Shown: positions 191 through 16,546, numbered from the stretch's first letter. The stretch: DNA of 24,000 bases from Thermacetogeniaceae bacterium (GCA_050013155.1 JBEKFU010000027.1:10318-34317), one strand, 5' to 3'. Made by a program: numbers and translations. The notes: a model not told the origin generated them from the letters alone.

Positions 191-319
191 GCACACCACT
201 CCTTGGTTTTTATTAATTTATAGCCCATTTTATACCGGTCTTCCATTCACATTATATGAGGGTTCCCATAATATGGTTACCATTTCCTGGTCTGTGATAA
301 AAACCTCTTCAGGAAACTT

Positions 320-396: not shown

Positions 397-405
397 CATA
401 TAATA
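397..405 (+). promoter_or_regulatory. Candidate -10 element CATATAATA, which fits sigma-K type CATA-N3-TA and also contains TATAAT
   Basis: Located 49 nt upstream of ATG 454. The same 9-mer occurs upstream of the 174-aa Cys-rich gene (8220-8212, minus). No convincing -35. Confidence 0.3.
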
Positions 406-1609: not shown

Positions 1610-2770
1610 TTGACCGGACAGATCAGCGCCTCTGTTGAAAAGGATTTCCTATCCACATTTTATCTTCCCCTACCAGGTTATCCCATTTCCTATCAAATCG
1701 ACAACGTGGTTATGCAATGTGAGCTTGTGTTTAAAAAAAATATCCTGGTTTTCGGTAAATACGACCTGGTTTTCTGCTATCCAGATACAGTAAACGAGCT
1801 TGAACCTGGATACAGCGCCGCGAGTTTAACCCGCACTTTTTGCGAACCCATATTGCTCACCGGGTCGGACATACTTGAAATGCTGTCTGGCGGGATAATC
1901 GATATCCAGGCGGCCTTCGGCCAACCGTTGCATGTACGGATCAAGCTTGGCAAGCCTTTGAACTTGAAGCCCTGGGAACGTCTAAAAAGCCTGCTCTTAC
2001 GTAAAACATGGGTTGAAGTAGTCATAGAGGGTCGGATCACAGCGGAGATCGCCCGGAACCACCGCAACACGGACCTGGAAATTGAGGAATTTCAGTCGCA
2101 CACCAGGGCCTGCATAACTGTGGAACAAGATGACATGGCCATACAGCAAAAAGAGGCGGCCATCGACCTGGAAGCGCTGGCTGAGCAGGTGCAGAAAATC
2201 ATCAGCCGGCGCCAGGAAGAAAAGACTTCCCTCGATCTGGAGGCGATGACTGAACTGGTGCAGAAAATCATCAGCCGGCGCCAGGAAGAAAAGACTTCCC
2301 TCGATCTGGAGGCGATGACTGAACTGGTGCAGAAAATCATCAGCCGGCGCCAGGAAGAAAAAGCGTCCAAAGATGAGGCGGCGCGCCAGGAAGCGTGTGC
2401 AGAGCGGTCAAACGCCCCTAAGCAGGACGCAATACCGCCTGGTCAGGGAGAGCCCGAAGTATTGAACACAGCCAAGGTGACCGAATTGGTATTGAACATC
2501 CTGCACGCCCGGGAGGCTGCAAGGGCCATACAAGAACAGCACAGGTCGCAGCGCCCCAATACAAGTGAACGCCAGGGATATTTCAACGCCCCTCACCCGG
2601 AGGCTACCCGGTACCCGCGGGCATCCGCCCGGGAACCCGCTTGCGGGTGGGGCGGCGTGGGGTGCCCGCCGGTACCTGTTCAGATGCCGTTGGAGCAGAT
2701 CCCCAGCCGGCCCGGTTTCGAAGCAGTCATTCATAATCCACCGCCGAAACCGCCTGGCGCCGGCGGGTGA
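1610..2770 (+). CDS. Hypothetical protein (~386 aa). It has a globular N-terminal domain, 3 x 23-aa charged helical tandem repeats, and a Pro/Gly/Arg-rich tail that includes a GC-hairpin repeat.
   Basis: TTG 1610 has GAGGTG (1598-1603) 6 nt upstream. The track start GTG 1601 lies inside that RBS, in the same frame. Codon usage is like its neighbours. No family recognised. Confidence 0.6.
   Translation: MTGQISASVEKDFLSTFYLPLPGYPISYQIDNVVMQCELVFKKNILVFGKYDLVFCYPDTVNELEPGYSAASLTRTFCEPILLTGSDILEMLSGGIIDIQAAFGQPLHVRIKLGKPLNLKPWERLKSLLLRKTWVEVVIEGRITAEIARNHRNTDLEIEEFQSHTRACITVEQDDMAIQQKEAAIDLEALAEQVQKIISRRQEEKTSLDLEAMTELVQKIISRRQEEKTSLDLEAMTELVQKIISRRQEEKASKDEAARQEACAERSNAPKQDAIPPGQGEPEVLNTAKVTELVLNILHAREAARAIQEQHRSQRPNTSERQGYFNAPHPEATRYPRASAREPACGWGGVGCPPVPVQMPLEQIPSRPGFEAVIHNPPPKPPGAGG
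2162..2368 (+). repeat. In-frame tandem repeat, 3 x 69 bp (23 aa: LDLEAMTELVQKIISRRQEEKTS)
   Basis: Copies at 2162-2230 (diverged), 2231-2299 and 2300-2368. Copies 2 and 3 are identical except at the 3' end of copy 3. Confidence 0.95.
2610..2676. repeat. GC-rich hairpin cluster (family B) inside the 3' part of the 1610 CDS
   Basis: GGTACCCGCGGG (2610-2621) pairs with CCCGCCGGTACC (2665-2676). The inner hairpin is ACCCGC-TT-GCGGGT (2635-2648). It encodes REPACG, the same peptide as the murI insertion. Confidence 0.6.
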
Positions 2771-2893
2771 GAAGGCACAGTCAAGCTGCCCAGTTGGGTG
2801 GAGAACCCCTGTGAATTCCTGAGCAAGATCCGCTACCATCCTCCTGAAAAGCCCGCTGACTGCTCCCGTGCTCCGCATTCCCAATGAAGCACA

Positions 2894-2923
2894 GCAAAGG
2901 CAGCGGTTGTCCGCTGCCTTTGC
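2894..2923. terminator. 13-bp perfect hairpin GCAAAGGCAGCGG-TTGT-CCGCTGCCTTTGC between convergent genes
   Basis: Stem at 2894-2906 / 2911-2923. No clear T-tract on either strand. Confidence 0.45.
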
Positions 2924-2944
2924 CAGCGATACCCGGTCTGAGCC

Positions 2945-3955
2945 TTACCTGGGGTCGACCGTCCCTGTCGCCAGGAAGCCGTTGATGGTGACGGTGAGGA
3001 TGGGCAACCCTGTCGTGGTGGTTCCGGTCTGAGTGAAGATGAGCGAGCAGGTTGTGGCGCTGTCGTGGGCAACTCCCACAACGTCGACGAATTCGAGCGG
3101 GATCGGGAACGATACCAGTTTGCCCAGAAACGTGAATTGGACAACGTCGATGGCGCCCTCTAAGCCGCCGATCGTGGGGAAGCTCGCCGTTCCGGTCAGG
3201 TCGGTGGTTGCGATGGCGACCTGTACGCCGGCCCTGTAGATGTAAACCGTCACGCCCGAAGCAGGGCCGTTCATGCCCAGGCCCAACAGGACGACCGTCG
3301 GGGTGCCCTGACAACGCTCCGGCGGGAAGAGCGGCGTGGGCGGGCACGCGAACCCGGGTTGTGCCAAGAAGGTGCATGCCGGTACCTCGCAGAAGCCGTA
3401 GCTCGGCACCAGCAGCTTCACAGGGGCCGTCACCTGGATCTCCTTGCAGATCTTGCCGGTGCAGGCGAGCACTACCGGCAGGCCTGTCGGGCTGGCGAGC
3501 AAGGTGCAGGTGCAGTCGCCGAAGCTCAGGATATCGCACGTGATATTAGTTCCGGGCGGTACCCACAGATCTGCCCGTGCCGCTCCCGCCAGGGTGAGAG
3601 TGGGCGTGCAGACCGTTACGCCGGCCACGAGAATGGGAGCGCTGACCTGGAATGAGTTGATCACCAGCACCTCTTCGAAATACGGCGTCAGTGGCGGTGT
3701 CACCGCCACTGTCCCGGCGAAGGTACAGGTTGCGCTACCCGGAATAGGGCTGCAGGCAACGGCGGCGCCCGCCGGTATGGTGACGCCCGGGCAGGCCGAT
3801 GAAACAGGTATCTGGCTGGTTACGAGTTCCTCGGTAAAGCACTGGTCGTAGACCTTGTTGACCAGGATGCAGTCCTTGGCGGTAAACGACGGGCAGGTTG
3901 GTATGGTCACCCCTGCGATCACTGTAAATCCGCATTCGCCTGGCGTAATTGGCAT
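2945..3955 (-). CDS. Cys-rich (about 18 Cys), Thr/Pro/Val-rich 336-aa hypothetical structural protein with no signal peptide. The C-terminal ~110 aa look like a CarboxypepD_reg/Cna-B-type beta-sandwich. Candidate spore coat/exosporium protein.
   Basis: ATG 3955 has AGGAGGG 7 nt upstream; the track ORF starts 28 codons earlier without an RBS. Motifs VTIPAGAAVAC and GSATC are shared with the 174-aa protein. GPASGVTVYIYRAG..TTDLTGTASF fits the regulatory-domain pattern (recalled from memory, not searched). Confidence 0.65.
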   Translation of the reverse strand: MPITPGECGFTVIAGVTIPTCPSFTAKDCILVNKVYDQCFTEELVTSQIPVSSACPGVTIPAGAAVACSPIPGSATCTFAGTVAVTPPLTPYFEEVLVINSFQVSAPILVAGVTVCTPTLTLAGAARADLWVPPGTNITCDILSFGDCTCTLLASPTGLPVVLACTGKICKEIQVTAPVKLLVPSYGFCEVPACTFLAQPGFACPPTPLFPPERCQGTPTVVLLGLGMNGPASGVTVYIYRAGVQVAIATTDLTGTASFPTIGGLEGAIDVVQFTFLGKLVSFPIPLEFVDVVGVAHDSATTCSLIFTQTGTTTTGLPILTVTINGFLATGTVDPR

Positions 3956-4103
3956 ATGGTTTCCCTCCTGATGAAGATTTTTTAAGAGTACAGTCAATTG
4001 GTTAATCGTGACTGGTGATACATTATACGGTAAATACAAAGAAATGTGATTCCTCTCGGTAACAGTTCTCCTAAATTTTTCATATCGTAATTAGGTAGCA
4101 ATC

Positions 4104-5153
4104 ATGTCTGGATCAACAGGTGTATGGCGCATGGATAGTCATGAGGGCACAGTCGGCCAGGATACCGGGCAGCGCAGGGAGAAGACGCTACGCAACATCT
4201 CCATCCTCAAGCAGGCACTGGCGGAGAGACCTGGCGATCCCTTCCTGGGCTACAATCTCGGCCTCAGCTTCTATGCCCTGGGAGATTTGGAAAACTCCCG
4301 CCACCATTATGAAGCGGTCAGGCAGCATCTCGATCCCGGAGACATGTTTACTGCGACGTTTTTCCGAAACTACGCCATCTGCCTGGGCGACCTGGGTGAC
4401 TTCGCGCAAGCGCTCAACCTGATCGACGAGGGCCTGGCCTGTTTTCCCGACTACCCTGACCTGTACTTTATCAAGGGGGAGCTTCTTTTTGACCTGAACC
4501 TGATGGCCCAGGCAAAAGACAGTTTTTTAAAGTGCCTTCGCTTCCATGCCCTGCCGGAATATGTCACCACCGAGGGGGTCACCGGCCACCTGGCGCTTCA
4601 GAATCTGGCCGAGGTCTGCGCCCGTCAACAGGATCTCGATGAGGCCGTGGCCTATCTCGAACAGGTATTGAGAATCAGGCCTGCATATGAATTGTTTGCC
4701 CAGTTATGCTCGCTGATGAGGCAAAAGGGTCTGAATGAGGGTGAGGTGGCAAAATACCTGGAAAACGGCTTCCACCTCGACCACCCTGCAATTGCCCGGC
4801 TACTGCTTGACATCAAGGAGGCAGGTTACAGCCGGGAGGACCTGCAACAACTGGAGGACGCCCTGCACGGCGGTATCGCCACAGCCGGTGTCTACTACCT
4901 GCTCGGCACGGCATGCGCCAATCTCGACAGGCACGACCAGGCCTTCGTGTACTTCGCTCAGGCTGGTCTGCAGGAGCCCGGCAATGAACTCTATGCCGCC
5001 TGCGCTCTGGAACAGCTTGCCAGCCAGTGTCTGCTGCACATCACCAGGATGCTTGACCTGGAAAATGGACAGGTGGAACTGCGCAAGGAGCTGTTCAGGT
5101 TGGCATCCCTGAGACACAAGGCACAACGGCTTAAACAGGACCTGCTGCCTTGA
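4104..5153 (+). CDS. TPR-repeat protein; a stand-alone paralog of the TPR module of the adjacent glycosyltransferase
   Basis: TPR-like helical repeats throughout. RNISILKQALAERPGDPFLGYNLGLSFYALGDLENS aligns with KRNLKLLGITADKEKDGFFYYNLGVEHLRLREMEKA in the next protein. An alternative start is ATG 4131, with AGGTG 8 nt upstream. Confidence 0.75.
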   Translation: MSGSTGVWRMDSHEGTVGQDTGQRREKTLRNISILKQALAERPGDPFLGYNLGLSFYALGDLENSRHHYEAVRQHLDPGDMFTATFFRNYAICLGDLGDFAQALNLIDEGLACFPDYPDLYFIKGELLFDLNLMAQAKDSFLKCLRFHALPEYVTTEGVTGHLALQNLAEVCARQQDLDEAVAYLEQVLRIRPAYELFAQLCSLMRQKGLNEGEVAKYLENGFHLDHPAIARLLLDIKEAGYSREDLQQLEDALHGGIATAGVYYLLGTACANLDRHDQAFVYFAQAGLQEPGNELYAACALEQLASQCLLHITRMLDLENGQVELRKELFRLASLRHKAQRLKQDLLP

Positions 5154-5180
5154 GAAGTGAGAGGTGGGAATGACGTAACG

Positions 5181-7556
5181 ATGGAACAGGTGACTCTGAG
5201 CCTCTGCATGATCGCCAAAAACGAATCCGGGAATATTGGGCGCTGCCTGCAGAGCGTCAAGGATTTTGTGGACGAGATCATCGTCGTCGACACCGGCTCC
5301 ACCGACGATACCGTAGACATTGCCCGGGACATGGGAGCGACGGTGATCGAGACGGAATGGCAGGATGATTTCAGCCTCGCCCGCAACGCCTCACTCGATA
5401 GGGCGACCGGGGACTGGATCCTCTTCCTTGACTGCGACGAGGAACTGGCCCCCGGGAGCGGCTCCGAGCTGCGGGCGCTGATCCGGGACAGCCGCTATGA
5501 AGCCTACTTCATCCAGGTGTCCAACCTGACGGAAACGGGCTCCAAGTTCCTCGCTCCCAGCGTGCGCCTGTTCAGAAACAGAAAGGCCTTTCGTTTCGAG
5601 GGCCGGATCCATGAGCAGATCGCCACCTCGATCATTGCCAATAAGGGCCAGCAGAGCATCGGGCAGTGCAGCATCTCGATCATCCACCACGGTTACAACG
5701 GGCAGCAGTCCAACATCCAGGCAAAAATCAAGAGAAACCTGAAACTCCTGGGTATCACGGCAGATAAAGAAAAAGACGGTTTCTTCTATTACAACCTGGG
5801 TGTGGAGCACCTCCGCCTCAGGGAAATGGAAAAGGCCCTCGATTGCTTTTTAAAAGCCGCCAAACTGACGGCGGCCAACCTGGGGTATGCCCCAATCCTT
5901 GCTCTCAGAACCGCTACCACCCTGATGGACATGTCCAGGTACCGTGATGCTGTCAGGCACCTGAAATACTACCAGGGTATTTACGGGAATTTCAACGACC
6001 TGTTTCTCCTGGAGATGCTCTGTTACCTGCACTGCGGTTGGTACTCACAGGCCGGCGAATGCCTGCAGAGGTATTTCGCCATGCCTCCCGCCCCCACCTG
6101 GTATCCAACAGAAACGAACTACTGCGGGACTTCGGCCGAAGAATACAGGGACTGGCTGCAGGGGCGCCCCATCCCCAAGGATTATCCGGGGATCAGTGCC
6201 TGCATTATTGGCAGGGACGAGGCGGACCATATTCGCCACTGCATTCACGGCATCAACGAGATCGCCAGGGAGGTGATCTACGTCGATACGGGCTCGACCG
6301 ATGATACCCCGGCCATCGCTTTCCAGCATGGAGCGAAGGTCTTCGCCACCCCGTGGTCCGGCAGTTTCTCCGTGGTGCGCAATCTTAGCCTCGATCAGGC
6401 CTCAGCAGAGTGGGTCCTGGTTCTGGACGCCGATGAGATGCTGCCGGAAGAGAGCAAAAAACAGATTGTGGAGTTGCTCAAGAAGGCCCCGCCGGATGAG
6501 GGCGGGTATATCCTGAAAATCTGCACCTTCCTCGATGGCAGCATATCCCCTGCCAACTGCCACATTACCGGAAGCTGCAGGCTGTTCCGCCGGGTACCCG
6601 CCCCGGGTACCCGGCAAGGCGGGCACGGCCCGGATGCTCGCTACCGGGGAGCGGCCGGTGAAGAGGTAGTCACATCACTGCAGGCATCCGGCCAAACCGT
6701 TGCCCCGGCAGAGATCACCGTCAACCACCTACACTACCAATCAGAACCAAAAAGCATCGCCCGAAAAAGACAGTGGAAAATCGATGCCATCAACCAGGGT
6801 CTGCAGGAGGACCGCCTCACCTGCAACTACTTGCTGGGCACGGAGCTTTTCTACGCCCGGGACTTCGACGCGGCATCAGACCGCTTTGAAGCCTGCCGCA
6901 AGCTGAGCGATATGGCCTGTACGCCGGACTTTTTCTATTACTACGCCCTGTCCCTGATCAATACCCGGGATTACAACTGTGCAGTGGGAATCCTGGAGGA
7001 GGCATCGGGACTCTTCCCGGATTATACCGATTTGACCTACCTGCTGGCAGTTGCCCATAGCGCCCTGGGGAACACAGAGGCCGCAGAAACGCTGTTGCGC
7101 CGCTGCCTGGAACTGGGTGACGCCCCCTGGCAGAAGTACCTTGCCAGCCCGGGAACGGGAAGTTTCAAGGCAATGTACTCCCTGGGGACGGTCTTGGCGC
7201 AGCGGGGTCTCTTCTCCGAAGCTGCCGACCTGCTTTTTCAAGCCACTGCCCTGCCCGGGGGATTTGAGCAAGCCATTGAAGGCATCGTCATTTTGAGCGA
7301 TAAACTGGATGTCCCGCTGGAGCAGATATTAGAGGAGAAGGGGCTCCTAAATCCCGTGAGCATCAGCGCCGTCGCCAAAACCTGCGCCAAAATGCTGCGC
7401 TTCCAGGACAGCCTGCGCTACCTGGACATGGCCTACGACGAGGTTGTCAAGGGGCCGGCGCCGAGAAACTTCACCTGCATCATTCAGGCCATCGACCTGT
7501 TGATCAAGATGTTCTGCCGCGGCCCGGCGCCGGGCGCTGAACCCGCGATCTGTTGA
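5181..7556 (+). CDS. Tandem glycosyltransferase with architecture GT2 - TPR - GT2 - TPR
   Basis: GT2 module 1 spans about 5195-5695 (MIAKNES..EIIVVDTGSTDDT..ARN..DWILFLDCDEE..RLFRN..GRIHEQ). GT2 module 2 spans about 6190-6745 (ACIIGRDEA..EVIYVDTGSTDDT..VRN..EWVLVLDADEM). Helical TPR-like segments follow each module. ATG 5181 gives the usual N-terminus; the track start GTG 5157 has no RBS. Confidence 0.85.
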   Translation: MEQVTLSLCMIAKNESGNIGRCLQSVKDFVDEIIVVDTGSTDDTVDIARDMGATVIETEWQDDFSLARNASLDRATGDWILFLDCDEELAPGSGSELRALIRDSRYEAYFIQVSNLTETGSKFLAPSVRLFRNRKAFRFEGRIHEQIATSIIANKGQQSIGQCSISIIHHGYNGQQSNIQAKIKRNLKLLGITADKEKDGFFYYNLGVEHLRLREMEKALDCFLKAAKLTAANLGYAPILALRTATTLMDMSRYRDAVRHLKYYQGIYGNFNDLFLLEMLCYLHCGWYSQAGECLQRYFAMPPAPTWYPTETNYCGTSAEEYRDWLQGRPIPKDYPGISACIIGRDEADHIRHCIHGINEIAREVIYVDTGSTDDTPAIAFQHGAKVFATPWSGSFSVVRNLSLDQASAEWVLVLDADEMLPEESKKQIVELLKKAPPDEGGYILKICTFLDGSISPANCHITGSCRLFRRVPAPGTRQGGHGPDARYRGAAGEEVVTSLQASGQTVAPAEITVNHLHYQSEPKSIARKRQWKIDAINQGLQEDRLTCNYLLGTELFYARDFDAASDRFEACRKLSDMACTPDFFYYYALSLINTRDYNCAVGILEEASGLFPDYTDLTYLLAVAHSALGNTEAAETLLRRCLELGDAPWQKYLASPGTGSFKAMYSLGTVLAQRGLFSEAADLLFQATALPGGFEQAIEGIVILSDKLDVPLEQILEEKGLLNPVSISAVAKTCAKMLRFQDSLRYLDMAYDEVVKGPAPRNFTCIIQAIDLLIKMFCRGPAPGAEPAIC
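6594..6629. repeat. 36-nt GC-rich palindromic insertion (encodes VPAPGTRQGGHG) within the second GT2 module
   Basis: Module 1 reads LFRN-RKAFRFEGRIHEQ. Module 2 reads LFRR-[VPAPGTRQGGHG]-PDARYRGAAGEEV. The DNA contains direct GGGTACCCG x2 and the CCCGCC/GGCGGG stem, and shares GGTACCCGC with 2610. Confidence 0.5.
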
Positions 7557-7572
7557 CTGTCTAAGCACGTCA

Positions 7573-7601
7573 AAACCCGGGGCATGGCACATCCCGGGTT
7601 T
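7573..7601. terminator. Bidirectional terminator-like hairpin AAACCCGGG-N11-CCCGGGTTT between convergent genes
   Basis: 9-bp stem at 7573-7581 / 7593-7601, flanked by an A-run on the 5' side and a T-run on the 3' side. Confidence 0.6.
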
Positions 7602-7646
7602 ATGAATAAATTGAACCAACCTTCAAAGCTAAGCTATGCCCCCTGA

Positions 7647-8171
7647 TCATCCAGCGTAGTATTTGATCCGGTCCTCGCTGCACGGAACAGTTTCTACGCA
7701 AACAGTCGTGGGATCACAGAGATTGGTCACATGAAGGGAGATGGTAACTTGGCCGGAAACAGAAGTCGGCGTCGTTTCGATGCTGCCGGGGTCACAGGTG
7801 GCAGAGCAGGTTACTTTGGGTTCGCCGCACCCGCACGGACAGAGGGTGACACCGGCAGGCAGAGTAATGCAAGCCGATTGTCCGGTTATATCGCAGAAAT
7901 CCAGGAAGGTGCATGAACAGACGCATTTAAGGTCAGCTTCGTCCTTCTCGCGGTGGTGCTTGTCGAGATAGGCATATTCAAACTGGGCATCATAGGAAAA
8001 GCGTAGCGTCGGCGGCGTTGTGCTCAAATCCAGTTTGGCATCATAACAGCAAACGTTGCACTGGTTACCCGGTGCGACAGGCGTGAAGCAAGGGTCGTGA
8101 CAGGTCAACGTTATGGCTAAGACTGGATCGAATGAGGTGACTTCATAGGCACAAAGCTTAATTAATGGCAT
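7647..8171 (-). CDS. Very Cys-rich (19 Cys in 174 aa) hypothetical protein with no signal peptide. Candidate spore coat/exosporium cross-linking protein.
   Basis: ATG 8171 has AAGGAGG 7 nt upstream. Cys clusters are CNVCC, CVCSC and CPCGCG. The motif ITLPAGVTLC...TCSATC is shared with the 336-aa protein. Confidence 0.7.
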   Translation of the reverse strand: MPLIKLCAYEVTSFDPVLAITLTCHDPCFTPVAPGNQCNVCCYDAKLDLSTTPPTLRFSYDAQFEYAYLDKHHREKDEADLKCVCSCTFLDFCDITGQSACITLPAGVTLCPCGCGEPKVTCSATCDPGSIETTPTSVSGQVTISLHVTNLCDPTTVCVETVPCSEDRIKYYAG

Positions 8172-8211
8172 TTTTATACCTCCTTAAATAAATCTATGCC
8201 AAATCCGCTTA

Positions 8212-8239
8212 TATTATATGTTACCGGGATTAAAGGGGT
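8212..8239 (-). promoter_or_regulatory. Sigma-K-like promoter candidate: AC - 17 nt - CATATAATA
   Basis: On the minus strand, AC lies at 8239-8238 and CATATAATA at 8220-8212. The predicted TSS is about 35 nt upstream of ATG 8171. The motif has low information content. Confidence 0.35.
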
Positions 8240-8246
8240 GCCTTTC

Positions 8247-8298
8247 TAAAAAATAACAGTTGTGCTCATGGTTAAAAAATAACAGTTGTGCTCATGGT
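8247..8298. repeat. Perfect tandem duplication, 2 x 26 bp (TAAAAAATAACAGTTGTGCTCATGGT)
   Basis: 8247-8272 equals 8273-8298 exactly. The repeat sits between the fumarase-beta stop codon and the promoter region of the Cys-rich gene. Confidence 0.95.
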
Positions 8299-8299
8299 A

Positions 8300-8908
8300 T
8301 TATATTCCGGAAAACCTGCCTCTGTGGAAGAGATTGACAGGGGAGTAGGTATGGAGTTGGCGATAGCTGGCAGGGCCAGTCTGATACAGGTTCCGGCCGC
8401 GGCTATCGATGGCTACGGTGGCGGGGAAGTCCTCGATCACGAAGCGCCACAGCGCCTCGGTGCCCAGGTCATGATAGGCGACCACCTGCGCCTCTTTGAT
8501 GCAGTGCGACAGCAGGGCGCCGGCCCCGCCGGTGGCCGCCAGGTAAACGGCGCCGTTCTGCCGGATGGCCGCAATCACATCGGGGCTGCGGTCGCCCTTG
8601 CCGATCATCCCTCGCACTCCGTAGGCCAGCAGTTGGGGCGTGAAGGCGTCCATCCGCCCGGCGGTGGTCGGCCCCGCCGCTCCGATGACCCGGCCTGGAC
8701 GTGCCGGAGTCGGTCCCACGTAGTAGATGACCTGCCCTCTCAGATCTACCGGCAGGTCCTGGCCTCGAGCCAGGGTTTCGGCAAAACGCCGGTGCGCCTG
8801 GTCACGCGCCCCGAAGATCACTCCGGACAGCAGCACCTGCTGTCCAGCCTGCAGCGCCCTTGCCGTTTCCGCATCGAAGGGCGCCTTAATCCGCATGCAT
8901 TCATCCAT
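8300..8908 (-). CDS. Class I (Fe-S) fumarate hydratase / tartrate dehydratase family, beta subunit (C-terminal domain protein)
   Basis: LSGVIFGARDQAHRR..VIYYVGPTPARPG..GPTTAGRMD..GMIGKGDRS..AVYLAATGGAGALL matches the Fe-S hydro-lyase beta family. ATG has GGAGGAG 5 nt upstream. Confidence 0.9.
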   Translation of the reverse strand: MDECMRIKAPFDAETARALQAGQQVLLSGVIFGARDQAHRRFAETLARGQDLPVDLRGQVIYYVGPTPARPGRVIGAAGPTTAGRMDAFTPQLLAYGVRGMIGKGDRSPDVIAAIRQNGAVYLAATGGAGALLSHCIKEAQVVAYHDLGTEALWRFVIEDFPATVAIDSRGRNLYQTGPASYRQLHTYSPVNLFHRGRFSGI

Positions 8909-12294: not shown

Positions 12295-12939
12295 CTATTC
12301 CTGTTTGTTAACAAAGGTCAGGTTGCGGAGCAGCGGCTCATCGATCGGGATGTGCCCTGTCAGGGTGTCTTTCTTCTGGCCGCCAACCAGGATCTGCACC
12401 CGCTTCACGTTGTGGAACTCTGTCAGGGTGTCCACCAGGGCATAGACCGCCAGCGCCTCATCCTTGGGCCTGAGCTTGTCCTTGGCCACAGATCCCGCCA
12501 GGTCGACCACACAGGTGCCATTGGTCTTGATATTGACGCTGCGCACCTGCACACCTGCCGGGATGCTTGCTATGGCGTCAACACCCTGGGCAGGCCCCAG
12601 GCAGAGGGCGTCCACGATTTCCTTGGCAATCCCCGGCGCCTTGTCCACCTCAATGGTGGTGGGCACCAGGTAGCGGCCTTGCTTATCCTTGAAGTAGACC
12701 GTCACCTTGGTTTTTTCCACCTGGGGCGGCGGATTGCTCAGGCCTCCGGTGTTAAGGTCGGGCACGCCCTGGTCAACTGTTGGTTGTCCCTCCAACGCCT
12801 GCAGCTTTTCCGTCAGGTTGCAGCCTCCGCCCACTACCAGAAAAGCAGCCACCATGACGACCAGAAATACCAACCGCAGGTGAAAGAGGCGCCGCTCCTT
12901 TTCTTGCTCCTTCAACTTCTCAAAATTCCACACGTTCAC
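12295..12939 (-). CDS. gerM: GerM-like lipoprotein (GerMN domain; sporulation/germination)
   Basis: An N-terminal TM/signal segment ends in the lipobox-like VVGGGC. It is followed by VTVYF.D..G.YLVP....V....IAKE.V.AL..GP......IP.G....SV.I..G...VDL...... , which is typical of the GerMN domain. Confidence 0.75.
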   Translation of the reverse strand: MNVWNFEKLKEQEKERRLFHLRLVFLVVMVAAFLVVGGGCNLTEKLQALEGQPTVDQGVPDLNTGGLSNPPPQVEKTKVTVYFKDKQGRYLVPTTIEVDKAPGIAKEIVDALCLGPAQGVDAIASIPAGVQVRSVNIKTNGTCVVDLAGSVAKDKLRPKDEALAVYALVDTLTEFHNVKRVQILVGGQKKDTLTGHIPIDEPLLRNLTFVNKQE

Positions 12940-15314: not shown

Positions 15315-15791
15315 ATGGCAAATGTAACGCTGTTAAATTCATTAATAGCCATGGTGCTGCAGGACTTTCCGGAGAGCCTGGTGGTCGCCATGCTGGCCTT
15401 CAGCCTGCTTAATTTTCGCTTCCAGGCTAAAAAGATTTTAACCGTCGCCGCCTTGCAGGCCGTCACCAACCAGTTGCAGCTTTTCAACATCAATTCCGGT
15501 GTCCACGTCGCCGTCATGGTCGTCTCCCTGGCCATCTACATCCGGGTCCTCGCCAGGCCCATCCTGAGCCGCTCCTTGCTGGCAGCCCTGATCAGTTACC
15601 TGGTTTTATTAATCGTGGAAGCAGCATCTGTCCCCCCGCTTTTAAAGATTATCGGATTGGCCTTACCTGCCGCTTATGCCAATCCCTTCCTGCGATCGGC
15701 ATTCACCCTGCCCTACGAGGTTGTCCTGCTGCTGGCGGCCTTGGCTAAGAACTACTACAACCGCAAGAGGGGGCTAATCGTTGAGACCTGA
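15315..15791 (+). CDS. Polytopic membrane protein (158 aa, ~4-5 TM), first gene of the agr-type operon. It is possibly an AgrC-like sensor module without a kinase.
   Basis: Hydrophobic segments run throughout. Its 3' end overlaps the agrB start by 11 nt. The N-terminus LQDFPESLVVAMLAFSLLNFRFQAKK recalls N-termini of AgrC-type sensors (weak recollection, not searched). Confidence 0.65.
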   Translation: MANVTLLNSLIAMVLQDFPESLVVAMLAFSLLNFRFQAKKILTVAALQAVTNQLQLFNINSGVHVAVMVVSLAIYIRVLARPILSRSLLAALISYLVLLIVEAASVPPLLKIIGLALPAAYANPFLRSAFTLPYEVVLLLAALAKNYYNRKRGLIVET

Positions 15792-16431
15792 GATCGTCCG
15801 GCCTGCCGCCGCCTACTTGAGGGAACAACTCGACCTGACCCCGGACCAGGAAGCGGTCGCGGTCTTCGGCCTGCAGACGCTCCTCTATCCCGCCCTGGAT
15901 TTCCTCTGTTTCTGCCTGGCAGGCTGGCTGCTGGGCTGCCTCGCCGCCACCGCCGTGGTTGCCCTGGCCACGTTTGTGCTGCGCCTTTTTGCCCACGGGG
16001 CGCACAGCAGGTCGCCGCTCACCTGCGCCCTGCTCGGTGTGATCGTGGTCCCGGCGCTCGGCAAGACAGCGGTACTCGCCGCCCCCCTTTTCACCGGCCC
16101 AGAATTAGCACTGGTTGTCACCCTCGGGTTCCTCGTCGTCATAGGCGCCGTCTGGCGCCTGGCGCCCGCCGATTCCCCCGCCAAGCCGGTCACCGCGGGC
16201 GAGGAGCGCCAAAGGCTGCGCCTCTACTCGCTCCTCGTCGTGCTGCTGATCACGGCCGGCCAGTCGGCGCTCCTGCTTACCGGGGCGCAGGCTTATCCGG
16301 TGGTGCTGGCCATGAGCTTCGGCCTCTGGTGGCAGGCCTTCACCCTGACGGGGGCCGGGCACCGGTTCGCCGTGCTGTTGGACGATGTCTTTACCAGAAA
16401 GGAGGGAAAGTTAGATGAAGCGTCTAATTAG
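15781..16431 (+). CDS. agrB: AgrB-family membrane peptidase, which processes and cyclises the AgrD propeptide
   Basis: LRLFAHGAHSRSPLTC aligns with S. aureus AgrB IRRHAHGAHAPSSFWC (catalytic His/Cys region). LAPADSPAKPV aligns with YAPAATKKKPI. The protein is multi-TM. TTG start has AGAGGGGG 7 nt upstream. Confidence 0.9.
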   Translation: MRPEIVRPAAAYLREQLDLTPDQEAVAVFGLQTLLYPALDFLCFCLAGWLLGCLAATAVVALATFVLRLFAHGAHSRSPLTCALLGVIVVPALGKTAVLAAPLFTGPELALVVTLGFLVVIGAVWRLAPADSPAKPVTAGEERQRLRLYSLLVVLLITAGQSALLLTGAQAYPVVLAMSFGLWWQAFTLTGAGHRFAVLLDDVFTRKEGKLDEASN

Positions 16432-16546
16432 TATCCTGTTGCCGTCTCTCTTCAGTGTTCTTGTCGCTGCAGCCCTGATCGGCGTCAAGCCAATGTGCGG
16501 TGTTTTTTTGTACCAACCTGAAGTGCCCGCCGTCCTGAAGAAGTAA
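16415..16546 (+). CDS. agrD: AgrD-type autoinducing peptide precursor, 43 aa: MKRLISILLPSLFSVLVAAALIGVKPMCGVFLYQPEVPAVLKK
   Basis: Below the ORF-track size cutoff. ATG 16415 has GGAGGG 8 nt upstream and overlaps the agrB 3' end by 17 nt. It has a hydrophobic N-terminal helix, a single Cys followed by 4 residues (CGVFL), then YQPEVPxxL. Compare S. aureus ..CDFIM-DEVEVPKEL. Confidence 0.8.
   Translation: MKRLISILLPSLFSVLVAAALIGVKPMCGVFLYQPEVPAVLKK

Follow-up and report, generated by a model that had tools for sequence, protein, structure and literature searches.

The 24,000-nucleotide (nt) stretch of Thermacetogeniaceae bacterium DNA analyzed here (GCA_050013155.1, JBEKFU010000027.1:10318-34317), called the window at its full length, carries between positions 2945 and 8171 what is probably a locus for an outer layer of the spore (exosporium or outer coat), active late in the mother cell and composed of two modules. 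Two of its genes encode cysteine-rich proteins of 336 and 174 amino acids (aa), named C336 and C174. Two others form an operon made of a tetratricopeptide repeat (TPR)-only gene and the ‘GT gene’, whose product has the order GT2-TPR-GT2-TPR (GT2, glycosyltransferase family 2). The 386-aa product of a gene next to C336 is named R389, and L numbers denote the compared loci. All four open reading frames (ORFs) of the original prediction are real (2945-3955, 4104-5153, 5157-7556, and 7647-8171). The outer-layer assignment is made because C336 is homologous to CsxA and, at a greater distance, to BMQ_0737, the promoters are conserved and of sigma-K type, the distribution is confined to Bacillota, and the glycosyltransferases resemble enzymes that modify proteins in the cytoplasm. 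On the same grounds (CsxA homology, promoters, Bacillota-only occurrence, and type of glycosyltransferase), the earlier idea of a spore-surface module combining structural proteins with glycosylation survives, while its picture of one unit, with two related Cys-rich proteins pointing toward the central genes, does not. Adhesion, permeability, and persistence of spores depend on their outer layers, and most anaerobic spore formers lack annotated exosporium genes because outer-layer proteins differ so much between lineages.

C336 is encoded on the minus strand (2945-3955, from the ATG at 3955). It has 18 Cys, close to the estimate of about 18 made before, and is as rich in Thr, Pro, and Val as claimed (47 T, 34 P, and 38 V); the Cys clusters CNVCC, CVCSC, and CPCGCG reported for the two Cys-rich proteins are present. 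Hydropathy profiles of C336 and C174 show no N-terminal signal-like segment and no clear transmembrane helix, as had been stated, with maximal 19-residue Kyte-Doolittle values of 1.74 for C336, within a confidently predicted β-strand, and 1.21 for C174. The N-terminal Cys-rich domain of C336 (aa 1-215; 3311-3955, minus strand) contains 17 of the 18 Cys, nearly all invariant across the family, and is marked by the motifs PGxC...CP...DCIxVxKVYDQC and LLVPSYGFCxxPxC...CPP..LFPP. By profile and pairwise alignment, these 215 aa are homologous to CsxA, an exosporium lattice protein. An hhalign comparison of the C336 family profile with Clostridium sporogenes CsxA (G9F2G0; sequence from the supplement of PMC4942563) gave 94.8% (E 5e-8, 187 columns), a broader profile of the N-domain gave 96.3% (E 1.7e-9), and pairwise BLASTP segments scored 4e-4 and 4e-3. 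The motifs CIxVxKV(F/Y)DQC and LxVP(A/S)YG(Y/F)C...PP are invariant in alignments A1 and A4, and both occur in CsxA, where they read CIxVxKVFDQC and LMVPAYGYC...YPPQ.

The same region is matched by NF052457, the NCBIfam model for the spore-coat protein BMQ_0737 (model positions 2-191 of 199 against aa 29-212; 26.8 bits, E 5e-6), which also matches 29 of 29 C336 homologues (best E 1.2e-11), the single-domain relatives of ~190-230 aa scoring 24-67.5 bits. The curated cut-off of this equivalog_domain model, 71 bits, is reached by none of C336 and its 29 relatives; such sub-cut-off scores (24-67 bits versus 71) make C336 a distant relative of BMQ_0737 and not an equivalog. One relative, in L060 (10001-10573), can be aligned with CsxA from end to end (BLASTP 2e-6) and reaches 67.5 bits on the BMQ_0737 model, to which CsxA itself gives no match. 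Since C336-family proteins match both, and CsxA does not match the model on its own, the C336 family bridges CsxA and BMQ_0737. C336 therefore belongs to a known family and is not undescribed; of the two Cys-rich proteins that could not be assigned before, only C174 stays an orphan. Pfam gave no match to C336, a sequence search of the PDB gave none for the C336 or the C174 family, and the CsxA-like domain has no sequence signal to CsxC.

A scan for the C336 family with one genome per species returned 79 loci, all in Bacillota, and the genera include the known endospore formers Moorella, Neomoorella, Alkaliphilus, Natronincola, Metaclostridioides, and Desulfovirgula, together with Sulfobacillus, Syntrophaceticus, Peptococcaceae metagenome-assembled genomes (MAGs), and many other MAGs. 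The CsxA scaffold family is thereby extended to Thermacetogeniaceae/Peptococcaceae, Moorella, Alkaliphilus, Sulfobacillus, and others, and linked to BMQ_0737 of a Bacillus. If true, the bridge would mean that one exosporium scaffold family is common to Clostridia and Bacilli, where the current literature stresses convergence.

The AlphaFold2 (AF2) model of C336 (predicted local distance difference test score, pLDDT, 80) has an all-β N-domain with unusually long strands, for which Foldseek returned no match. The most conserved segment of the protein, LLVPSYGFC..PxC..CPP..LFPP (aa 182-212), is modeled with low confidence, and we infer from the model that these conserved, seemingly ‘disordered’ Cys/Pro arms may act as inter-subunit connectors. 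The C-terminal β-sandwich described in the original prediction (aa ~217-336; 2948-3307, minus strand) is modeled at pLDDT 86-97 and resembles transthyretin/5-hydroxyisourate hydrolase (HIUase) in Foldseek, with a template-modeling (TM) score, normalized to the target, of 0.5-0.63 and a probability of ~1. In some relatives (P0019, P0022, P0023, P0045, and P0047), this domain is swapped for DUF11 or other immunoglobulin (Ig)-like modules; CsxA-like domains thus carry swappable display domains.

We examined gene linkage by searching every fetched locus with the window proteins in tblastn. The proposed four-gene unit does not extend far: the full layout is restricted to a close clade with at least 69% identity (L010, L011, L013, L014, L023, L097, and L099), and the locus is best described, from these comparisons, as two conserved modules that this lineage happens to carry side by side. 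Module 1 pairs a C336-family gene with the convergent R389 gene and is kept in at least 15 loci, down to 26% identity. Module 2 joins a C174-family gene to the GT2-TPR operon in at least seven lineages, down to ~40% identity. C174 homologues with 38-50% identity adjoin both GT orthologues in L009, L089-L091, L092, L093, and L102, whereas a gap of ~6 kb separates the C174 homologue from the GT genes in L100, and weaker GT2 genes lie near C174 homologues in two further lineages. The C174 and GT genes are convergent in most of these loci and divergent in L089-L091. Sporulation genes found near C174/GT modules are yabG (L009), sipL (L089), and CsxA-like genes (L092 and L093). In L009, yabG is located just upstream of the C174 homologue, and two DUF6385 proteins follow the GT2-TPR block (15454-16435). 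L092 has two tandem CsxA/BMQ_0737-like genes (2713-4381) and, beside the C174/GT module, two secreted CAP-domain proteins.

R389 (1610-2770, plus strand), the convergent neighbor of C336, has an N-domain that is β-rich and conserved, followed by 23-aa repeats that vary, and carries at its C-terminus the invariant motif LEQIPSRPGL...PPPKPPGKGG. The repeats, encoded at 2163-2361, amount to 2.9 copies of a 69-bp (23-aa) unit and differ in copy number among relatives. Pfam and NCBIfam scans of the R389 family gave no match, and a comparison with the CsxA-like domain gave no signal. No collagen-like repeats were found in the window. The close relative L011 has a collagen-like ORF (GAT/GPT repeat) ~8 kb from its CsxA-like gene, which is present neither in the window nor in its extended contig.

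The GT gene (ORF opening at 5157, likely start ATG 5181, end 7556, plus strand; 791 aa, with matches to PF00535 and TPR families) encodes the double GT2 enzyme that had been claimed. Two GT2 domains alternate with TPR (PF00535, 5.1e-39, two stretches), and their DCD and DAD motifs are intact, in the contexts LDCDEE and LDADEM. Each unit places a GT-A fold before the TPR, without signal peptide or transmembrane segment (maximal hydropathy 1.15). The closest solved relatives of GT domain 1 are GmaR (2e-29), SunS (2e-26), and ThuS (1e-16); GmaR is the flagellin O-linked N-acetylglucosamine (O-GlcNAc) transferase of Listeria. The best NCBIfam match, at 147.8 bits (4e-43), is TIGR04195, the SunS-family peptide S-glycosyltransferase, whose equivalog cut-off of 350 bits is not reached.

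The TPR-only gene just before it (ORF opening at 4104, likely start ATG 4131, end 5153, plus strand; 340 aa, TPR Pfam matches) is the orthologue of a GT2-TPR glycosyltransferase that has lost its GT2 domain by in-frame deletion; both likely starts, ATG 4131 and ATG 5181, are those called in public assemblies. The first operon gene has an intact GT2 domain in L011, L013, and L014 and an internal partial deletion in L010, and has lost the domain in L023 and the window, where the in-frame junction reads MDSHEGT / ...GQRREKTLRNISI. The sequence of the TPR gene in the window is identical in four independent assemblies, so the loss of GT2 is not an assembly artefact. By this comparison, the ancestral system had three GT2 domains, of which two are found in this genome, and the missing catalytic domain, lost in frame, provides a natural experiment on the number of GT domains needed.

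C174 (7647-8171, minus strand), the Thr-rich member of a small family, contains 19 Cys, exactly as counted before. A word-indexed search found 13 homologues, and an exhaustive search of 1.84 billion representative proteins with a hidden Markov model placed the family in 17 clusters at 50% identity; Pfam and NCBIfam scans of all members gave no match. Typical members have 140-152 aa and 5-13 Cys, so that the window clade has approximately double the usual ~10 Cys, plus an inserted charged, Cys-bearing loop (aa 70-87). The AF2 model (pLDDT 79; predicted TM score, pTM, 0.68) is all-β, with seven long strands, and had no Foldseek match in the PDB or in the viral models of BFVD, the top entries being long secretin β-hairpins with TM scores below 0.3. 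Between the predicted strands are conserved Thr/Ser-rich turns, TTPPTL (aa 51-56) and TTTPTSVSG (aa 132-140), which are candidate glycosylation sites. Tandem duplicates of the C174-family gene were observed in L095 (685-1796), L096 (2994-4105), and L098 (8001-9077).

A relationship between the two Cys-rich proteins, suggested earlier from the common motif (V/I)T(I/L)PAG..C...SATC, was rejected after BLASTP and two profile-profile comparisons, which did not detect homology. The motif is literally there in both, and the TLPAG..C..SATC stretch is the sole thing found by the profile comparison, but it is not significant (hhalign 0.3-0.4%, E 0.13-0.2; BLASTP E 1.8). A link of the C174 family to CsxA, CsxB, or CsxC was likewise rejected for want of any signal, even though CsxB is similar in build (151 aa, 10 Cys). 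The comparisons with other spore-surface families that had been proposed yielded, for both Cys-rich proteins and their relatives, no Pfam hit at E <= 1 to Ena/DUF3992 and none to the Spore-coat CotZ type representing CotY/CotZ/ExsY; Foldseek TM scores to Ena2A fibers were 0.11-0.16.

Upstream regions provide a second line of evidence. The sigma-K consensus of B. subtilis is AC-N16-17-CATAnnnTA. The promoter of the TPR/GT operon, AC-17-CATATCGTA (4062-4089, plus strand), matches it exactly and is embedded in a block, GGTAACAGnnCTCCTAAAnnTTTCATATCGTA, kept in L010, L011, L013, L014, and L023 even as the intergenic length ranges from 148 to ~480 nt. Equivalent motifs precede the GT operon in the distant lineages L009, L089, L092, and L093; the motif is present before the GT operon in six lineages. 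The AC-17-CATATAATA noted earlier upstream of C174 is present at 8212-8239 (minus strand), and its architecture is the same in 15/15 family members spanning 38-100% protein identity. The C336 promoter is ATCACA-17-(C)GTATAAT (4022-4050, minus strand), with CCATATAATGTA preceded by (T/A)AC(A) as the -10 element in relatives. Overall, the pattern AC-N15-18-CATA[TC]nnT occurs 15-120 nt upstream of 15/15 C174-family and 14/17 C336-family genes, against a background frequency of 1.1% among 100-nt windows from these loci, and CATA is invariant in the -10 element. Judged from these motifs, the three transcription units appear to carry sigma-K-type promoters, which may also be read as sigma-A sites. 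Within the window, CRTATAAT has four copies versus 0.49 expected, which suggests a larger late-sporulation island reaching out to the window edge.

Of the convergence on the central genes claimed by the original prediction, the part concerning C174 holds, since this gene is convergent with the TPR/GT operon; C336, instead, is divergent from the operon, with which it has a common divergent promoter region of 148-175 nt. The 5′ end of the C336 leader forms a hairpin, ACCAGTCA...TGACTGGT (3990-4016, minus strand), whose arms differ yet stay complementary in L005 and L017-L019 (CACCAAC...GTTGGTG) and which some relatives lack; a possible role is that of a 5′ mRNA-stabilizing stem. Immediately upstream of the C174 promoter lies a perfect 26-bp tandem duplication, TAAAAAATAACAGTTGTGCTCATGGT, in two copies (8247-8298). 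Further CATATAAT elements are located at 397-404 (plus strand), before a gene for a proline/glutamate-rich 196-aa protein (454-1044), and at 251-258 (minus strand), before a leftward gene starting near 189 (MSNLIQNPSFEEGLNFW...).

In general terms, the locus can be rationalized into a sequence of steps, for which we infer expression timing, self-assembly, acceptor, sugar, and localization. Expression probably takes place in the mother cell, late in sporulation. By analogy with CsxA, the N-domain of C336 would self-assemble, within the cytoplasm of the mother cell, into a symmetric lattice cross-linked by disulfides or, alternatively, insert into a lattice built by a paralogue, and its transthyretin-like C-domain would then be displayed outward, with R389 as the conserved partner of C336. 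C174 would be made together with the cytoplasmic GT-A+TPR protein glycosyltransferases, whose TPR arms would bind the protein substrate while the GT2 domains move sugars from nucleotide sugars to Ser/Thr of C174 and possibly of C336 too; the TPR-only remnant may serve as an adaptor. The lattice would end up coated with a glycoprotein that is not collagen-like.

A more specific proposal is put forward tentatively, with prospects well below even: that C174 is a new spore-envelope glycoprotein, possibly with a new fold, and serves a GT2-TPR machine with three catalytic domains as its dedicated acceptor, the two together covering a lattice of CsxA type with a sugar coat that involves no collagen; and, as a separate point, that the C336 family bridges CsxA and BMQ_0737. 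In its most unusual version, SunS-like chemistry would put some of the sugars on cysteine. C174 and its constant GT2-TPR companion form a directly testable candidate enzyme-substrate pair for glycosylation of the spore surface outside the collagen-like BclA paradigm.

Several observations weigh against the outer-layer assignment or parts of it. C174 has neither a homologue of known function nor a fold match in the databases searched, and the BMQ_0737 score of C336 is far under the cut-off. The promoter statistics overstate independence because the compared loci are phylogenetically related; the hexamers are also sigma-A-like (TATAAT within CATATAAT), the C336 promoter scores 10/12 as a sigma-70-type site, and the -10 element of C336 in the window itself is CGTATAAT, not CATATAAT. 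In most lineages, the CsxA-like gene has no linkage to GT genes, and the host is known only from metagenome assemblies. Finally, the acceptor of the glycosyltransferases is deduced from linkage only, and these enzymes could act on another protein or synthesize a polysaccharide. This last point leads to a rival explanation with a modest chance of being right, in which the locus does serve the spore surface and the GT2-TPR enzymes act on another spore protein (C336 or one encoded elsewhere) or build a polysaccharide, leaving C174 as a co-regulated structural or morphogenetic component. It draws on the 14% Thr of C336, on the fact that GT2 enzymes also make polysaccharides, and on L037 and L072, where a CsxA-like gene adjoins a GT2-TPR gene without a C174-family gene. 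However, in at least seven lineages the C174-family gene is the only constant companion of the GT2-TPR operon, TPR-bearing GT-A enzymes of known function (GmaR, SunS, SgtA) act on a protein or peptide (PMC7157674), and no sugar-precursor, flippase, or polymerase genes exist in the window.

Glycocin, flagellin, and gas-vesicle readings were rejected on gene context, and context together with conservation makes the glycocin, metal-binding, and gas-vesicle readings unlikely. The first of these, in which a SunS-type S-glycosyltransferase would sugar a cysteine of a C174 precursor to give a secreted antimicrobial or signaling product, is extremely improbable. TIGR04195 is the best NCBIfam match of the enzyme, SunS and ThuS are among its closest solved relatives, and the neighboring C174 is very Cys-rich; but 147.8 bits is far under 350, and GmaR, an O-transferase, scores higher than SunS. 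Moreover, C174 is a confidently folded β protein of 140-170 aa in AF2, not a ~40-aa helical hairpin peptide, family members do not conserve most of its Cys, and sporulation-type promoters precede the genes. Neither the window nor L001-L004 has a glycocin precursor, a leader-cleaving export ABC transporter, or a thiol-disulfide oxidoreductase, and the window has no C39 peptidase. A role unrelated to spores, with vegetative metal-binding or redox proteins or gas-vesicle-linked parts and glycosyltransferases for the cell envelope, is very improbable too. The CxC/CxCxC clusters (CVCSC, CPCGCG) that look metallothionein-like are confined to the window clade and absent from most family members, and the gas-vesicle cluster 4-9 kb to the left is countered by relatives of both modules in contexts without gvp genes. 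The alternative, sigma-A-like reading of the promoters would suit vegetative expression, against which stand the invariant CATA of the -10 element and the homology of C336 to CsxA and BMQ_0737.

Known systems provide a useful framework for the outer-layer assignment. CsxA, a protein of 299 aa and 25 Cys, builds the basal layer, hexagonal in pattern, of the exosporium in C. sporogenes (PMC4942563, PMC7333573), and csxA clusters in Clostridium also include a glycosyltransferase gene and a second Cys-rich ORF (PMC7333573). A recent preprint describes CsxA as intertwined trimers of SPOCS/DUF3794-type fold, reports CdeC to be SPOCS-like, and treats the exosporium scaffolds of Bacillus and Clostridium as non-homologous, with BMQ_0737 unmentioned (bioRxiv 10.64898/2026.09.03.749163). 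CsxA of C. sporogenes/C. botulinum group I resembles C336 in the motifs CI.V.KV(Y/F)DQC and L.VP(S/A)YG(F/Y)C and in Cys density, and its gene likewise has as neighbors a gene for a glycosyltransferase, another small ORF rich in Cys, and a partner ORF that is conserved. C336 differs in having an extra C-terminal transthyretin-like domain and in lacking the acidic tail and the CGGGCNCGCTC insert of CsxA. In contrast to the csxA cluster, the window has no collagen-like BclA/BclB genes, its glycosyltransferases are multi-domain GT2-TPR proteins, C174 is unrelated to CsxB and CsxC, the partner gene is convergent and not divergent, and the host lineage is Thermacetogeniaceae/Peptococcaceae, not Clostridium. 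In spores of B. megaterium QM B1551, BMQ_0737 belongs to the outermost layers (PMC4656864); proteins of this type are single-domain, ~200 aa, whereas C336 has two domains.

For the glycosyltransferases, the nearest parallel is SgtA of C. difficile, a GT-A+TPR enzyme that glycosylates the exosporium protein BclA3, encoded beside it (PMC7157674). As in this locus, a cytoplasmic protein with GT-A followed by TPR is encoded beside a spore-surface protein gene, and the proposed logic, mother-cell glycosylation before deposition, is the same. The presumed substrate here is, however, small and β-rich instead of a collagen-like fiber, and the putative enzyme is a tandem GT2-TPR-GT2-TPR accompanied by a second GT2-TPR paralogue. 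GmaR and SunS/ThuS also combine GT-A with a helical-repeat domain, as the GT gene product does, and act on a protein or peptide in the cytoplasm, but flagellar or bacteriocin genes are absent nearby and the GT domain is duplicated within one polypeptide. A further relative is F-Anchor-3 of C. aceticum, composed of DUF4183, DUF11, and a CsxA-like domain, the last of which is proposed to fit an appendage or display module into the CsxA lattice (PMC12357932). It has in common with some C336 relatives the fusion of a CsxA-like domain to DUF11/Ig-like modules; unlike it, C336 lacks the DUF4183 (F-ENA) domain and carries the CsxA-like domain at the N-terminus, and no fiber subunit gene was identified. 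The locus is best read as an extension of the csxA/bclA/sgtA cluster type, without a collagen-like protein, with an orphan as presumed acceptor, and with a multi-domain glycosyltransferase.

The remaining features concern the surroundings of the two modules. The gerM gene cited by the original prediction was recovered as a GerM (Germane) gene at 12295-12939. A gas-vesicle cluster (GvpA, GvpF/L, GvpG, a GvpN-like AAA protein, HSP20, and a CDC48-like AAA protein) was observed in L001-L004, ~4-9 kb beyond the left edge of the window; gas-vesicle genes are absent beside relatives of both modules in other genomes. A scan of 2700-8400 for intrinsic terminators found none. The spacer between the convergent C336 and R389 genes (2771-2944) contains a 12-bp GC-rich hairpin and folds with a minimum free energy of -73.5 kcal/mol (z -2.5). 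Between the convergent GT and C174 genes, another GC-rich hairpin, AAACCCGGG-N11-CCCGGGTTT (7572-7602), is a possible bidirectional terminator; the whole-spacer fold around it is no better than shuffles (z 0.17). Further to the left, a long perfect hairpin, CAACGAGTTCTTGGCTTCAGTGGGG...CCCCACTGAAGCCAAGAACTCGTT, recurs in an intergenic region of L023 and looks like a small mobile or repetitive extragenic palindromic (REP)-like element; a 44-bp tandem repeat adjoins it, and the two features occupy 1085-1140 and 1231-1315.

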